Below, piece by piece: positions 7,839 to 37,918 of a stretch of DNA of 64,000 bases. The stretch spans positions 64,498-128,497 of the forward strand of contig CAYRHX010000001.1 of assembly GCA_964424265.1 (NCBI GenBank), read 5' to 3'. The position numbers were made by a program, and so were the translations under genes. The DNA is from an uncultured Candidatus Saccharibacteria bacterium. GTDB taxonomy: Bacteria > Patescibacteriota > Minisyncoccia > Phycocordibacterales > UBA2100. The notes under the pieces are model-generated. The model saw only the letters and a list, made by a program, of their open reading frames with translations. It had not been told where the DNA came from and made no database searches. The number at the start of each line of letters is the position of its first letter. The stretch's first letter is position 1.

Positions 7839-8171
7839 ATGGACGAACAAACGCCGATAAGCCAGGGCAAGCCAGAGCAGAAGACGCTGATGGGGATCTT
7901 GGCATATGTTGGCATTCTCATTATCATCCCGTTCTTGATGGCAAAAGATGATCCTTTTGTAAAATTCCACATTAAGCAGGGTATGGTGCTGGTTATCGTT
8001 GAAATCGCAGTATGGGTTGTCGGAAGTATGATGTGGTCACTCTGGGGTATTCTTAGTCTGGTCAATATAGCGACTCTTGTTCTTTCCATCATAGGCATCG
8101 TCAATGTGGTTCAGGGCCAGCAAAAAGAGCTCCCCCTCGTGGGCGGATTTGCAAAGAATTTCACGTTTTAA
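7839..8171 (+). CDS. DUF4870-like small membrane protein
   Basis: Conserved PFVKFHIKQG motif followed by two TM helices, typical of DUF4870. Confidence 0.65.
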   Translation: MDEQTPISQGKPEQKTLMGILAYVGILIIIPFLMAKDDPFVKFHIKQGMVLVIVEIAVWVVGSMMWSLWGILSLVNIATLVLSIIGIVNVVQGQQKELPLVGGFAKNFTF

Positions 8172-8743
8172 CCGTACACAACAACGACTCGGCGCAGCTC
8201 TCTACGGATCGTTTTGTGTTCGGGGATTGTCTGCGCCACAAGGTTCCAAAATCTCTTACTGTGGTTCATTTCGGAACGATGGCATAGCTCGTGGACAATA
8301 ATGTAATCTGCTATGCGCGGAGGCAAAACTGCAATTTTGTAATTAAAGCTAAGATTTCCGCTGTGTGTACAACTCCCCCATCGTGTCTTTTGCGCACGTA
8401 TTGAAATCTTTTTGAATGTTACACCATATACTTCGGCAAAATGACCGCAGCGCGCGCTCGCAAGAGCGAGCGCGCGCTGCTTCAGCAGGAATATGTCTGC
8501 GCGTCTTATAGGGATTACAGTGCGCTTTTTCGCTCGCTCAAGATTTCTCGATATCCAATCCGAGTGCTTAAGAATAAACCGCTCAATGATGCCAAGGCGA
8601 AAAGAGTGCGGCGCCGTAACCACAACGCGCGCATCAGGATGAACTGTGAGTCGTAGTGTTCGCGCCCGACGACTGCGTTTTAATTCATATTTCACAGGCC
8701 TATTGTAGTGTTCGGCGCCACCTCGACGAGAATGCCGTTTCAT
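8168..8743 (-). CDS. YgjP-like metal-dependent hydrolase (DUF45 / WLM-SprT-like HExxH)
   Basis: WGSCTHSGNLSFNYKI ... HELCH matches the COG1451/DUF45 pattern. Overlaps the upstream gene by 4 nt. Confidence 0.7.
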   Translation of the reverse strand: MKRHSRRGGAEHYNRPVKYELKRSRRARTLRLTVHPDARVVVTAPHSFRLGIIERFILKHSDWISRNLERAKKRTVIPIRRADIFLLKQRALALASARCGHFAEVYGVTFKKISIRAQKTRWGSCTHSGNLSFNYKIAVLPPRIADYIIVHELCHRSEMNHSKRFWNLVAQTIPEHKTIRRELRRVVVVYG

Positions 8744-9726
8744 CTAAAAAGACCTGAATTACACCTGTTATCGAGGGCTGCTAGATCGTCCGCCGTCAAT
8801 GCTAGAGCGTCCCCCTCGTTCATCATATACATAATAGCTTCACGATCGCGAACGTGACCGAGCCCGAGCGCGTGCCCCATTTCGTGGGCAAGTACGCGCA
8901 CCAGCACATTGCGGCTCGAGTATTCGTATATATCTATTTTTTGCTTTCCGGCAGCGCTTTCGTACACACCCTCCTCAAATTCGCCAAGCGATCCTCCTAC
9001 TTGGTTATATTGCTGTACATGCAAATTCAGTTCCACTATAAGCTGATTCAGTGTCGTCGCGAGGTCGTTGAGTATTTTTATGTCGTTATTCAATTGAAGC
9101 TGCTCTGCATTTACCATCTTGAGCAAGCTCTCGAGAGCTTGCTTTTCAAGTTGGAGCTGTTCAAAAACTTTCTTTGGAGCACCACCGCGGCGATTCCATG
9201 AAGACACTTCCTCATTGTATGCGGATTGGCGATTTTCATATGCGGTGATTTGCCTATCAAATACAAGCTTCTCTCTCTTCACCAAGACTGCGAGTGAATC
9301 GTATTTCTCCTTTAATGAATCGTAGAGCGCCCTTCGTTCGTCGATCTGTGCCTCTGTCGCCTCCAATGTGTCGGTGGTCGCCTGACGACGATCGTAGACG
9401 AAATTGATCGTCACGTCGCCACCCACAGGTTCATACGCAAAAAGATCTCTTCCAGACGGAGTTTCCCATATCCACTCTGCCTCCTTTAGATTTGAAATTA
9501 TTTCTTCAGTAGATATCTCAAACCGAGAATCGACGAGTCCAAGCGAATAAGTGACGGGTGATCGGCATGGCAAAGCTCGCGCCTCTAGCTGACGCACAGC
9601 AACACGCACAACCTCCTGATGCGAAAACCAATAATAGCCGGCAGCCCCCAAAAGAGCGACCAAGATAAGGATATCTGCGATGCGACGCATGACCCCAGTA
9701 TACAAAGCTTCTGAGGTAATTTGCAC
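8740..9726 (-). CDS. Membrane-anchored matrixin-like zinc metalloprotease with a coiled-coil region
   Basis: N-terminal TM segment, a long predicted coiled coil, and a C-terminal HEMGHALGLGH motif followed by the Met-turn AIMYM. Start may be the internal MRRIAD. Confidence 0.65.
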   Translation of the reverse strand: MQITSEALYTGVMRRIADILILVALLGAAGYYWFSHQEVVRVAVRQLEARALPCRSPVTYSLGLVDSRFEISTEEIISNLKEAEWIWETPSGRDLFAYEPVGGDVTINFVYDRRQATTDTLEATEAQIDERRALYDSLKEKYDSLAVLVKREKLVFDRQITAYENRQSAYNEEVSSWNRRGGAPKKVFEQLQLEKQALESLLKMVNAEQLQLNNDIKILNDLATTLNQLIVELNLHVQQYNQVGGSLGEFEEGVYESAAGKQKIDIYEYSSRNVLVRVLAHEMGHALGLGHVRDREAIMYMMNEGDALALTADDLAALDNRCNSGLFR

Positions 9727-9745
9727 TCACCGAAGATTGTACTGA

Positions 9746-10009
9746 TCAGCCTCTGTGTACCTTATTCCACACGGTTGCAAGCACATAACCAACGCAGTAA
9801 CCCACAACCGAAGCGAGAATAACGACAGTCGTCGCCGCTCCCACTTCAAACGGTCCAACGACGAGCGGCGTATGTGCCATGTGTGCCCACATCGAGAAAT
9901 CAAGAAGTGGCTGCGCCCAGCCTACAAGTACTAATAATGACCACAAAACGTGCCACCCACCGAGAACCGCCCCACCTACGATTCCTACTTTCCCTGGATT
10001 CATATGCAT
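9746..10009 (-). CDS. Small hypothetical membrane protein
   Basis: 87 aa with two hydrophobic helices. Immediately upstream of the metalloprotease gene on the same strand. Confidence 0.35.
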   Translation of the reverse strand: MHMNPGKVGIVGGAVLGGWHVLWSLLVLVGWAQPLLDFSMWAHMAHTPLVVGPFEVGAATTVVILASVVGYCVGYVLATVWNKVHRG

Positions 10010-10125
10010 ACCAATGTTGCGTACGCTAATAATATAGAAAGTATACTCCTATTTTTCACCTACAACTGCTCGCGCAGACAAAATCGTGGACGTAAAGAAA
10101 GCGCAGCAGAAACCGCCCGGACACC

Positions 10126-10812
10126 TCATCCCAAAAGTCCCTTTTTAGCTCGACCAGAATGAGTGTCGCAGCGAAGCTCGATACCAGAGCCTCCGACCTC
10201 AACAAAATGGAGTCCGGTTTGAATTTCACACAGGACGCACCTCCCTTTACCGCGCGTCCACGCATCGGACTTCACAGTAGCTGAGATCATGCGCTCGGCA
10301 ACATCAGGATCTCCCGGGCTATAAAACTCTGCATCGGCAAGCGTGAAGTAAAACTTGAAGACCTTTCTTCCGTCTTCTCTAATGTGTTTTGCGTCAATAC
10401 AATTAAAAATCCCCTTGTCGTACCACACGCCGGGATCAAGTTTCTCGTATATTTGTACCTGAAGCGGTTCTGTGCGGAGACCCCCCTTAAAGGCATGCGC
10501 AGCTTTAAAGAATTTCCCGTTCTCCGTAAGCGAGCCACTTTCGTACATTGCCAGTTGATCCACCGATTTTCCCCTCTCCACGGTTGTAGAATCATGACCT
10601 TCATATTCATACACTCCAGATTCCTCATTCCACACGTCTCTAAATCCAGTAGCCCGCGGCAACACCAAAAACACCGACAACTGGGTACCTGCATCCCTAA
10701 AATTCATCCCCTTCTGCGGCTCAATTCCTTCTCGCGTGATAAGCTCACTCGTCGAAATAATCGACGAGACCTGTTGCGGTGTCCCAACGTCGCCCAAAAA
10801 GTTCGACACCAT
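10126..10812 (-). CDS. SRA/YDG-like domain protein with a Cys/His-rich C-terminus; possible modified-DNA-binding nuclease
   Basis: GMNFRDAGTQLSVFLVLP ... GVYEYEGHD ... VWYDKGIF matches the SRA (YDG) pattern GIHGRSNDGAYSLVLA ... YTGSGG ... YDG. The C-terminal CVLCEIQTGLHFVEV...RCDTHSG looks like a degenerate HNH/Zn motif. Confidence 0.45.
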   Translation of the reverse strand: MVSNFLGDVGTPQQVSSIISTSELITREGIEPQKGMNFRDAGTQLSVFLVLPRATGFRDVWNEESGVYEYEGHDSTTVERGKSVDQLAMYESGSLTENGKFFKAAHAFKGGLRTEPLQVQIYEKLDPGVWYDKGIFNCIDAKHIREDGRKVFKFYFTLADAEFYSPGDPDVAERMISATVKSDAWTRGKGRCVLCEIQTGLHFVEVGGSGIELRCDTHSGRAKKGLLG

Positions 10813-10818
10813 ACCCTT

Positions 10819-11139
10819 TTAGCCCATCACCTGCTTCATTTGCTCTTCAATCGCCCGTTTAATTTTCCCCTCAAAAAGCCGCAGCATGAGCGGCAACTTC
10901 GCCGTTATGTCAAACTCGCGATCTTTGATCACCAACTGTCCGCTCACGTGTTGCCTTTCTGTCGTAAAGGCGAAATGAAGGGTTGAACCTTCCCAACGCT
11001 CTTCTTCGATCGTTGCTTTGCCTAAGAGCTGGGGACGCACATGTTCCAACGTTTTTTTTACCCTCAAGAGCGCGTCGTGTTTTGAAAGATTGTGTGGAAC
11101 CTTGAATTGCATCGGCAAACTATACGGCATCAAGCCCAC
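10819..11139 (-). CDS. PHA_gran_rgn-family small protein (TIGR02610-like)
   Basis: About 100 aa with the pattern hKVPHNLS...FTTERQHVSGQLVIKDREFDITAKLPLMLRLFEGKIKRAIEEQ, resembling the putative polyhydroxyalkanoic-acid-system protein family. Stop is 6 nt before the SRA gene start. Confidence 0.5.
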   Translation of the reverse strand: MGLMPYSLPMQFKVPHNLSKHDALLRVKKTLEHVRPQLLGKATIEEERWEGSTLHFAFTTERQHVSGQLVIKDREFDITAKLPLMLRLFEGKIKRAIEEQMKQVMG

Positions 11140-11229
11140 TCTGCAAAATTGCTACTCACGATGTGATTGATTGAATTGAGTCGAGCGTTACCCAAAGAAA
11201 AAAGGTGCCGGACAAAGCCAAGCACCTTC

Positions 11230-11826
11230 TCAATGTTTCGTCCGCCCTTTCGAGACGGCAGCGGCTCTTTTGCCGAGTGCCTGCCTCGTGCCGACGAGCT
11301 TTCTGGCGGTATACCACCAGAGCCGCATGTACGGCCCGCTCACCGCGGCCCGTATTTGGGCGGGGATCCTTTTCCACGCCAGAGGCACGTGCGCCTCGAG
11401 CCCCTTCAGCGTCGCTGAACGCATGAGGTATGGCGTCGCCACCTCTCGCATCCAGATTCCGATGAACGGAATCTTGCCCACATGCACCGGCATGATGAGC
11501 AAGACGAAGGCCGCGAAGCCACCGCAGAGCCCGCCTGCGATCAGCATCGCGAAGCGGATTGGCCATGTGGCCTGAATCCACCGCACGCGGACGACCTCGA
11601 ACCTCTCGAGCGTCGCGTGTGTGAGGCTTTTTGCCAATGCCTGATATGCCCGCCGCCATTTCATTGGCATGACCATGAGGCTCAGAAGCCATACGATCTT
11701 GCCGATAAACCGGCGAAATATTATCGCCACGACGGCTAGCACGATGGCTGCCACCTCTGGCGAAAAAAACACCGCAACCCCTGCACCGGTAAGCAGAATT
11801 GCGACGATCACAACGATGAATCGCAT
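11230..11826 (-). CDS. Hypothetical membrane protein in a GC-rich patch
   Basis: Multiple TM helices. The overlapping same-strand ORF 11156-11692 lacks protein-like features and is considered spurious. Confidence 0.45.
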   Translation of the reverse strand: MRFIVVIVAILLTGAGVAVFFSPEVAAIVLAVVAIIFRRFIGKIVWLLSLMVMPMKWRRAYQALAKSLTHATLERFEVVRVRWIQATWPIRFAMLIAGGLCGGFAAFVLLIMPVHVGKIPFIGIWMREVATPYLMRSATLKGLEAHVPLAWKRIPAQIRAAVSGPYMRLWWYTARKLVGTRQALGKRAAAVSKGRTKH

Positions 11827-11859
11827 CTCTGCCTCCTGTTTGGTGATTCGGGATCGCTA

Positions 11860-12606
11860 TTAGAGCATGGATTCGCCAAATGTAAACGATCCCACTAAAT
11901 TTTCAGCGATTTTGAAATCATCGGGAAGCGGTGCCACGAACTTCTCCCTTTTTCCTCCACGCATGAAAGAGATACTATGCGCATGCAGCGCGGGTCGTTT
12001 AAATCCAAAAAGAGCTGGTCTACCCTCTGCATACAAGTGATCTGCGACAAGCGGATGCCCGATGGATGCAAAATGAACGCGGATCTGGTGCGTACGCCCT
12101 GTTTTTGGAGACACTTCGATATACGCTGCGGATTCACCTGTGTCCGTCACGTTTTTGAGAAGCCGCCATTCAGTGATCGCCGCACGCTTCTCACCCTCGT
12201 CGCATAATCGAGCGTACCAGCGCTTCGGCAGTGTGTTGCTTCGCATGACTTCGGCGACTATCTTGCCATCATCGCTTTCCATGCGCCCATAGACAAACGC
12301 TCGATACACCTTCTCAACCCTCCTCTCTTTGAATTCGTGTTTCAAATACTCATACGCCTCAGGTGTTTTGGCCACGACCAGAATGCCACTTGTCGTACGA
12401 TCAAGTCGATGCACGATTCCCCGCAGAGGCACATGCTCGCTCTGAGGCGACACCCATGAGCCACCCACATCTGCAAGTGCCGGATATCTCTCAAAAATCC
12501 AATCAGCAAGAGACGGCTCGTGAGTGCGACCATCGTTGTGTACAATAAGGCCCGCTGGTTTATTGACGACAAGTACATCGTCCGTCTCAGCAAGTACTCT
12601 TGGCAC
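11860..12606 (-). CDS. RluA-family 23S rRNA/tRNA pseudouridine synthase
   Basis: Catalytic HRLDRTTSG motif, VVNKPAGL, and GRTHQIRVH. No S4 domain. Confidence 0.85.
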   Translation of the reverse strand: MPRVLAETDDVLVVNKPAGLIVHNDGRTHEPSLADWIFERYPALADVGGSWVSPQSEHVPLRGIVHRLDRTTSGILVVAKTPEAYEYLKHEFKERRVEKVYRAFVYGRMESDDGKIVAEVMRSNTLPKRWYARLCDEGEKRAAITEWRLLKNVTDTGESAAYIEVSPKTGRTHQIRVHFASIGHPLVADHLYAEGRPALFGFKRPALHAHSISFMRGGKREKFVAPLPDDFKIAENLVGSFTFGESML

Positions 12607-37177: not shown

Positions 37178-37918
37178 TCAACCGACCGTCCGTGCGACGC
37201 TCGCAGTAAGCGCACGGTGGTCTGAAACACCAGAGATAAGCTCGACATCGGAAACAGAGTACGCGGGAGTGGAGAACATGCCGTCGACCATGAGCTCAAG
37301 ACCATCGATGCGATGACGCTCAGGATCAAGACTGCTCGCGTACTTTGCGGGTATGTTGTCCTTATATGCTGCACTCAAGACGGAAAAGATCTCTCTCCCC
37401 CGTGGCGCATTAAAGTCTCCCACGAGAACAAGCTCTCCGAGCGGGGCGAGTATGCGCAGAAGCTCCTTCACGTCTCGCCTCTGATCAACGTCGGCCTGCC
37501 CATCGGGTGTCCAAGTAAAGTGTGTGGTCGCGATGCGATATGGCACTCCGTCTTTCTGCACATCGCACCACACGAGCGGAAAGTTTTTGTTGTTCCAGGT
37601 CTCGGGATTATCTTGATCAAGCTCCGGCAGATGCGCTGGATCACCCCTATAGAAAATCACGCCAGAATCGCTGACGGGAAGCTTGGTAAAAATACCGACC
37701 CCAAAAATCCGCGGGGGGTCATCACGTATATATCGCGACATGGGTGCGAATATGCACGGCGCATCGCCCAGCGCTTTCGAGAGTTTCGGGATATCTGTCT
37801 CGTACAATTCTTGAATGCATGCCACATCGGACATTTTAGATTCCAAAAAGGGTAATACCAGGGGCAAATGATTTGCACGCTGAATATTGAGAGAAAGAAG
37901 CTGGAGCGGCCTCCTCAT
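37178..37918 (-). CDS. Endonuclease/exonuclease/phosphatase (EEP)-family protein
   Basis: LLSLNIQ ... CIQE ... GDFNAPRG ... SDHRAL EEP motifs. Overlaps the pyrG stop by 4 nt. Confidence 0.7.
   Translation of the reverse strand: MRRPLQLLSLNIQRANHLPLVLPFLESKMSDVACIQELYETDIPKLSKALGDAPCIFAPMSRYIRDDPPRIFGVGIFTKLPVSDSGVIFYRGDPAHLPELDQDNPETWNNKNFPLVWCDVQKDGVPYRIATTHFTWTPDGQADVDQRRDVKELLRILAPLGELVLVGDFNAPRGREIFSVLSAAYKDNIPAKYASSLDPERHRIDGLELMVDGMFSTPAYSVSDVELISGVSDHRALTASVARTVG

Follow-up and report, generated by a model that had tools for sequence, protein, structure and literature searches.

The window analyzed in this work, a stretch of 64,000 nucleotides from contig CAYRHX010000001.1 of an uncultured Candidatus Saccharibacteria bacterium, carries on its minus strand a gene for a protein of 228 residues, in which an N-terminal SRA (YDG) domain is followed by a short Cys/His-rich module. 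The explanation that we favor, with a probability of roughly 0.6, is that this protein derives from type IV restriction endonucleases of the SRA-HNH class, that it has lost the nuclease, and that it is a non-cleaving reader of modified DNA. The cutting site is deleted, and modified DNA would therefore probably be bound and not cleaved. A first-pass annotation, made from the letters of the window alone, had described an SRA-like protein with a degenerate nuclease or Zn module, and had joined it in a cassette to the small PHA_gran_rgn-like gene that precedes it. Both open reading frames (ORFs) were confirmed, in tandem on the minus strand (Table 1), and the strings quoted in that annotation (GMNFRDAGTQLSVFLVLP, GVYEYEGHD, VWYDKGIF and CVLCEIQTGLHFVEV...RCDTHSG) are all present in the 228-residue translation.

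The SRA domain

The 228-residue protein has no Pfam or NCBIfam match in direct scans, and neither a single-sequence phmmer search nor an hmmsearch with a close-family profile (A1) gave a usable match to PDB sequences. Its fold was assigned from an AlphaFold2 model built from a 40-sequence alignment, with a predicted local distance difference test score (pLDDT) of 85.6 and a predicted template modeling score (pTM) of 0.83. When this model was compared with the PDB by means of Foldseek, the top 50 matches were all SRA domains, 23 of them at E<=1e-3, including those of SUVH5 (4ygi, E=1.8e-5) and AspBHI (4oc8, E=1.2e-4); ScoMcrA (5zmn) was matched at E=6e-3, and further SRA matches were to SUVH9, KYP, SUVH6 and UHRF1/2. 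The SRA matches had a probability of 1.0 and target-normalized TM-scores of up to 0.64. In a library of viral structures, the sole significant match was a ScoMcrA-like SRA protein (E=2.6e-6). No EVE, ASCH or YTH domain appeared in the Foldseek PDB top 50 or in the Pfam scans, and a non-SRA PUA-like identity, the outcome that the first-pass annotation had named as contrary to its proposal, did not emerge.

At the sequence level, a wider family profile (A2) matched the SRA domain of SUVH5 (E=1.3e-4) and, more weakly, that of UHRF1 (E=0.08). In the alignment of A2 with SUVH5, the family sequence VW[YF]DKG[IF]F lies on YVYDGLY, that is, on the YDG motif, which reads W130-Y-D132-K-G134-I-F in the window protein. 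Likewise, IYEGH lies on IYTGQ, with Y/F70 on the Tyr of the latter, [FY]-x-D (F/Y57-x-D59) lies on Y-N-D, and DQ...N (D85-Q86 and N98) lies on the DQ...N of SUVH5. Across the family, D59 and G134 vary little or not at all. Since fold, profile and motif evidence agree, the assignment of the N-terminal two thirds of the protein to the SRA/YDG domain is supported.

The SRA pocket of TagI, which receives the flipped base, is made of two tyrosine walls closed by a carboxylate (PMC6212794). Judging from the alignment, F/Y57, Y/F70 and D59 are candidate counterparts of these residues, so that the positions lining the pocket in SUVH5, UHRF1 and TagI are conserved here, and we infer that the domain binds DNA carrying 5-methylcytosine (5mC) or 5-hydroxymethylcytosine (5hmC) by base flipping. 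Beside the flipped-base pocket, at the position of the G-S-G-G or G-Q-G-G of UHRF1/SUVH5, the family has an invariant G72-H-D-S (residues 72-75, nt 10588-10599), which is G-H-D in the relatives with an intact HNH domain described below. With its His and Asp, GHDS might mean that the base recognized is modified differently from plain 5mC.

The C-terminal module and the family

An exhaustive profile search over 1.84 billion representatives recovered 571 relatives, the closer of which share the architecture of the window protein. From about E=1e-46 downward, the profile matches are proteins of ~230 residues with intact HNH C-termini, in which R-x-I-P-x-x-V-K-x-x-V-W-x-R-D-x-G-R-C-x-x-C-G-x-x-x-N-L-H-F is continued by D-H-I-I-P-x-S-K-G-G-...-N-I-Q-L-L-C-x-x-H-N-L-x-K-S-D. 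These intact relatives match the Pfam HNH models (PF01844, PF14279) above the cut-off and SAD_SRA just below it. The comparison by hhalign of A1 with a profile of the HNH-intact relatives (A3) yielded a probability of 100% and E=3.9e-56 over 208 columns, extending across both domains and including the C-terminus, and the identity between the family and this ~230-residue SRA-HNH clade is about 30-35% over the full length.

In a joint alignment, the eleven residues D-H-I-I-P-x-S-K-G-G-x are deleted from the window's clade, and variable residues stand in place of two Asn, that of N-I-Q-L-L-C and the one that follows the last His. The clade has kept the lead-in helix (residues 161-187 are homologous to R-x-I-P-x-x-V-K-x-x-V-W), as well as the zinc-knuckle pattern, which is G190-R-C192-x-x-C195 ... 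L201-x-F ... L213-x-C215-x-x-H218 in the window protein. The three cysteines (C192, C195 and C215) are invariant, and position 218 is His or, in one subgroup, Asp, so that the ligands of a predicted zinc site (C192, C195, C215 and H218) are kept. The Asp-His dyad occurs in 0 of the 109 full-length close homologues, compared with 35 of 53 full-length distant representatives. In the AlphaFold2 model, a β-hairpin (residues 202-206 and 210-214) is formed and no α-helix comes after it. Mutagenesis showed that the equivalent HNH residues of TagI, His229, Asn245 and His254, are essential (PMC6212794). H202 was considered as an alternative catalytic residue and rejected, since family members have His, Arg or Tyr at this position. 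A weak match links the linker region to the start of the Cap5 HNH domain, and the window protein has no significant match in PADLOC-DB, where its sole hit (E=0.022) is to a model for an endonuclease effector and covers only positions 1-30, corresponding to the HNH lead-in helix.

By these alignments and the model, the C-terminal module is an HNH domain without its catalytic core, which keeps a predicted CCC(H/D) zinc site. The earlier description of a "short, degenerate Cys/His nuclease or Zn module" was therefore accurate, because the module aligns with intact HNH relatives; the HNH homology that it anticipated is present, but the catalytic residues and the helix after the hairpin are not. 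A functional fusion of sensor and nuclease is not supported, since 109 of 109 full-length close homologues lack the catalytic Asp-His together with the structural and the metal-binding Asn. Outside the window's lineage, at least ten representatives among the relatives lack the Asp-His dyad and have a full-length HNH region with Zn ligands (for instance, P0139, P0144, P0152, P0163, P0166, P0172, P0176, P0178, P0187 and P0197), the dyad being replaced by sequences such as LRFAPL..., LHFALR... or LSIMSS.... Inactivation of the nuclease thus seems to have been repeated within the SRA-HNH clade.

The close family comprises 192 homologues of the 228-residue protein at E<=1e-3, one of them 100% identical, all of ~210-250 residues and all either unnamed or labeled "hypothetical". 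Those with a taxonomic label come, without exception, from metagenome-assembled genomes of Candidatus Paceibacterota, Kaiserbacteria or Minisyncoccia, and the family is, as far as labeled, confined to Paceibacteria-type bacteria of the candidate phyla radiation (CPR). When 40 diverse members were aligned, 34 columns proved to be invariant. In pairs of 70-86% identity, the nonsynonymous divergence (dN) is ~0.1 and the synonymous divergence (dS) is saturated; where dS could be estimated, dN/dS is ~0.05-0.1 when the entire gene is taken and 0.12-0.15 over its last 54 residues (175-228), values that are rough because of this saturation. The ORF has neither frameshifts nor internal stops and, given its homologues, the invariant columns and the low dN/dS, is a real gene under purifying selection.

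Two short segments set the window's clade apart from its HNH-intact relatives. At the N-terminus, S3, N4, F5, L6 and G7 are conserved to at least 90% in the 40-sequence alignment, and SNFLG[DE] is carried by 90 of 115 close members, whereas the HNH-intact relatives begin at about residue 15, without this tail. At the opposite end, the dominant pentamers are WGLLG, GGLLG, RGLLG, KRGLL and similar ones, and a GLLG or GLL ending is absent from the HNH-intact relatives. Residues 1-13, 78-80 and 225-228 are the only disordered ones in the AlphaFold2 model, with pLDDT <50 for 1-13 and 225-228. Termini that are disordered and yet conserved suggest peptide docking sites.

Gene neighborhood and the upstream PHA_gran_rgn gene

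The pairing of the SRA gene with the small gene upstream of it was proposed from their proximity, and the spacing of 6 nt (10813-10818), between the stop codon of the small gene and the ATG of the 228-residue gene, is borne out by the ORF coordinates. The small protein belongs to Pfam PF09650 (PHA_gran_rgn; E=7e-15, 55.5 bits against a curated cut-off of 26.6), but its description as TIGR02610-type could not be sustained, as it scores 21.9 bits, below the cut-off of 40.25. Set against four homologues, the small gene probably begins with the ATG at 11112 (M10) and not with the GTG at 11139, because homologues (those of loci L012 and L021) start at the equivalent Met. A promoter-like TTTGCA-17-TATAGT, a consensus match only, ends at 11119 before the small gene (11112-11147 region, minus strand); it would put the start of the transcript at or beside the ATG at 11112, and the mRNA is therefore possibly leaderless. 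The consensus scan that placed a terminator-like hairpin after the SRA gene returned 8 sites in the region, compared with 2.8 expected. The spacer, the promoter-like site and the weak hairpin suggest that both genes are co-transcribed here.

Table 1. Features of the SRA locus (positions in the window)
Feature	Position	Strand	Basis or remark
SRA + vestigial-HNH gene	10126..10812	-	228 residues + stop codon 10126-10128; 192 homologues; AlphaFold2 model
PHA_gran_rgn (PF09650) gene	10819..11139	-	106 residues from GTG; stop 10819-10821
N-terminal tail, residues 1-13, motif M-x-S-N-F-L-G-[DE]	10774..10812	-	conservation; pLDDT <50
SRA (YDG) domain, residues ~15-160	10333..10770	-	Foldseek PDB; SUVH5 profile alignment
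Linker + helices, residues 161-187 (E173-R174...K181...W185)	10252..10332	-	alignments to HNH relatives
Putative vestigial HNH / CCCH zinc knuckle, residues 188-220	10153..10251	-	joint alignment; hhalign; secondary structure of the model
C-terminal tail, residues 221-228, clade-specific G-L-L-G end	10129..10152	-	C-terminal pentamers; pLDDT <50 at 225-228
Weak terminator-like hairpin just 3' of the SRA-gene stop	10103..10117	-	consensus scan only

The comparative context was drawn from 30 non-redundant loci, a few of them near-duplicates: the window, four contig look-ups and 25 loci of GTDB genomes. Flanks of up to ~6 kb on each side, shorter at contig ends, were examined by phmmer and by clustering of neighboring ORFs. 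PHA_gran_rgn adjoins the SRA gene in only 1 of these loci, that of the window's own species, whose strains and contigs keep the pair (L007-L009). In four others, 2.8-5.7 kb separate it from the SRA gene (for example, 3.6 kb upstream in L021, 5.7 kb upstream in L016 and 4.9 kb downstream in L012), and it was not found within the flanks, as far as the contigs extend, in the remaining 25. Even in L010, where a 66%-identical orthologue occupies the same syntenic block, a GSDH-like gene and a 236-residue ORF separate the two. No conserved linkage was thus found, an outcome that the first-pass annotation had likewise named as contrary to its proposal, and the PHA_gran_rgn gene is an incidental local neighbor. 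Two genes that are co-transcribed in a single species do not yet form a system.

In the window, the SRA gene belongs to a run of seven co-directional genes with short gaps (8168-12606, minus strand), which encode an RluA-type pseudouridine synthase, a 198-residue membrane protein, the PHA_gran_rgn protein, the SRA protein, an 87-residue membrane protein, an M10 peptidase and a YgjP-like hydrolase. A partial order of SRA gene, peptidase or cyclophilin gene, YgjP-like gene and DUF2585 gene recurs in up to 12 of the 30 Paceibacteria loci, which argues for vertical inheritance. The individual neighbors, which make up a loose housekeeping setting, include a YgjP-like gene downstream (12/30), cyclophilin (12/30), DUF2585 (8/30) and M10 peptidase (7/30), and RluA, EF-Tu and S10 genes occur nearby in individual loci. 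YgjP-like genes accompany some type I restriction-modification loci; here, since other genes always separate the YgjP-like gene from the SRA gene, the association is one of synteny and not a functional link. The clustering of neighboring ORFs revealed no conserved effector beside the SRA gene in the 30 loci.

Dcm-like methyltransferases, for which the first-pass annotation had advised a check, were not encountered in the window or in the 30 loci. A motif scan found no C5-cytosine methyltransferase motifs in the window, a weak negative because the window is only part of the genome, and its sole ORF with [DNS]PP[YFW] (37226-37852) has no Pfam match; no DNA methyltransferase motif lies within ~6 kb of the gene in any of the 30 loci. 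A MazG-like gene (PF12643) occurs within ~5.5 kb in 10 of the 30 CPR loci, lying 38 nt downstream of the family member in L012 (L012:6710-7072), and another is found at L011:1095-1496. Loci of intact relatives were collected in a metagenome scan with a 6-sequence alignment, and in 5 of the 57 informative ones a MazG-like gene lies 16-216 nt downstream of the intact SRA-HNH gene (L036-L039, L113). A protein of 803 residues that combines a Schlafen-group-3 helicase with an S24 peptidase is encoded nearby in L037, L039, L055 and L113, and this grouping may be a small defense cluster against modified nucleotides. As a conserved partner, the MazG-like gene was rejected: it is suggestive for some intact enzymes, its distance is variable, and it does not characterize the SRA gene studied here. 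The intact relative P0137 has IS3 and Y1 transposase genes around it, along with genes for a NERD nuclease and a ParB_N protein, and 80 other intact relatives show no uniform context. Among the relatives, five proteins (P0141, P0174, P0239, P0203 and P0261) are fusions, the arrangements being HIT-SRA-HNH, PemK/MazF toxin-SRA-HNH, D12-class N6-adenine methyltransferase-SRA and SRA-HNH_2 (PF13391); the D12-SRA fusion was possibly cut by the contig end, as the protein ends inside the SRA domain.

Two other ORFs overlap the SRA gene, one of 200 residues in antisense (10384-10986, plus strand) and one of 135 residues in an alternative frame (10287-10694, minus strand). Antisense ORFs over the SRA gene recur in 22 of the 30 homologous loci, and such overlapping ORFs are most likely a by-product of conservation in the sense frame and not genes in their own right.

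Possible roles and relation to known systems

These observations can be integrated in a model in which the SRA domain would flip a modified cytosine (5mC, 5hmC or a similar base) out of duplex DNA and so bind it, and the protein would be unable to cut the modified DNA so bound. The Zn knuckle may have been kept as a structural, DNA-contact or dimerization element (the HNH domains of TagI form a dimer; PMC6212794), and the SNFLG[DE] and GLLG termini might dock a partner encoded elsewhere. Because the gene is vertically inherited within a housekeeping syntenic block, a chromosomal role is more likely than classical restriction; the protein could read the cell's own methylation, read incoming methylated DNA, or occlude or mark modified DNA. 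A more specific form of this reader explanation is put forward tentatively, as possible and not as probable: a domesticated "epigenetic reader", vertically inherited in Paceibacteria, which would recognize own or acquired methylated (possibly hemimethylated) cytosine and recruit an unlinked partner through SNFLG and GLLG.

Several points weigh against the reader explanation. The gathering score of Pfam SAD_SRA is attained by none of these proteins: the window protein and 40 family members have no match (PF02182/PF18491), and distant relatives score 19.8-25.5 bits with PF02182, at E ~1e-5, compared with a cut-off of 30.7. DNA binding and modified-base specificity are predictions from homology, and the presence of GHDS in place of GSGG/GQGG means that the ligand could differ from 5mC. 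The docking of partners by the termini is speculation, and the dN/dS values are, as said, approximate. Finally, some contexts look accessory, with RelB/ParE and Fic/RhuM genes near the SRA gene in L001, and Gp49/HTH genes and a PIF1 helicase in L003, so that defense through an unlinked effector or by occlusion could still be the function.

This last idea, in which the protein would defend the cell non-catalytically, by occluding modified phage or foreign DNA or by recruiting an unlinked nuclease via its terminal peptides, is the alternative that we take most seriously, and it is nevertheless doubtful. It would suit the descent from restriction enzymes, the intact SRA pocket, the exclusive presence of SNFLG and GLLG in the nuclease-dead clade, the loci beside toxin-antitoxin, Fic or PIF1 genes, and the repeated origin of other nuclease-dead lineages; it has to contend with the lack of a conserved neighboring effector in the 30 loci, with housekeeping synteny and vertical inheritance, and with the lack of a significant PADLOC match. 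That the protein might be an active type IV modification-dependent endonuclease, whose SRA domain senses 5mC or 5hmC and whose Cys/His module works as a minimal HNH, appears improbable. The missing dyad in all 109 homologues, the His/Arg/Tyr variation at position 202, the lack of a predicted helix after the hairpin and the essential nature of the equivalent TagI residues speak against it, despite the homology to SRA-HNH enzymes such as TagI and ScoA3IV, which restrict modified DNA (PMC6212794; PMC4333417; PMC6765204), the conserved Zn ligands and the His at 202 in the window protein.

The two-gene defense cassette, with the SRA protein as sensor and PHA_gran_rgn as effector or regulator, draws on the 6-nt spacer, the common strand, the promoter-like site before and terminator-like hairpin after the genes, and the persistence of the pair in the same species. 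It is very improbable, being largely refuted by the comparative context, where adjacency is limited to that species; moreover, no recognizable nuclease or other effector domain was found in the small protein of 97-106 residues (Pfam, NCBIfam, PADLOC). Least credible of all is the view that a restriction gene is decaying here and no longer has a function: the catalytic core is gone, as decay would have it, but 192 homologues have kept a constant length, the invariant columns include the Zn ligands, dN is much smaller than dS, conserved motifs have newly arisen at the termini, and the reading frame is unbroken.

The family is a large, conserved and unannotated one in which the sensor was kept, the nuclease was cleanly lost and new conserved termini were gained; its retention in ultra-small CPR genomes implies that it is of use. 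A protein that binds modified cytosine without cutting would provide a simple bacterial model for reader-type SRA function and a small candidate reagent for binding 5mC/5hmC, and the more specific, domesticated version would correspond in function, within prokaryotes, to SRA readers of the UHRF1 or SUVH type. Since several other nuclease-dead lineages exist among the relatives, repeated exaptation of restriction enzymes would also be documented. In any event, a false lead is removed, as the pair of SRA and PHA_gran_rgn genes is not a defense architecture, and the family offers, in minimal genomes, a candidate bacterial reader of modified DNA that lends itself to direct tests.

To our knowledge, nearly all that has been learned about bacterial SRA domains concerns their part in the targeting of type IV restriction nucleases. 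A limited literature search yielded no paper joining "SRA domain" with CPR, Patescibacteria or Paceibacteria. Active SRA-HNH enzymes have been described by Han et al. 2015 (PMC4333417), Kisiala et al. 2018 (PMC6212794) and Lutz et al. 2019 (PMC6765204), and inactive or degenerate members are not mentioned in the SRA-HNH screen of the last of these.

MspJI, AspBHI and PvuRts1I (SRA-PD-(D/E)XK) and the SBD-SRA-HNH enzyme ScoMcrA have the SRA sensor fold in common with it and differ in their other, active nuclease domains and in their extra domains. The SRA-HNH enzymes TagI, ScoA3IV/Sco5333 and TbiR51I show the same order of N-terminal SRA, lead-in helix, CxxC, β-hairpin and C-x-x-H, although TagI itself is too distant to be matched by the family profile at E<=1. 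Unlike them, the window protein is without the catalytic Asp-His, Asn and Asn, has an 11-residue deletion in the core and has added SNFLG and GLLG, and its family lives in Paceibacteria-type CPR bacteria, in housekeeping synteny and without a mobile or defense context. By descent, then, and going by its sequence, it is of the SRA-HNH lineage, and it fails the catalytic test for membership among the endonucleases. Its closest known kin are the uncharacterized SRA-HNH clade of ~230 residues (e.g., P0133, P0136 and P0137), with full-length homology and with pocket and Zn ligands in common. The SRA domains of UHRF1/2, SUVH5 and KYP have the same fold, and their YDG, aromatic-x-Asp, DQ and N motifs align with those of the window protein, which differs from these eukaryotic readers in having no SET, RING, PHD or Tudor domain, in its GHDS for GSGG/GQGG, in being bacterial and in its apparently vestigial HNH. 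Those domains are non-nucleolytic readers that recruit other activities, and a reader role is what is predicted for the window protein.

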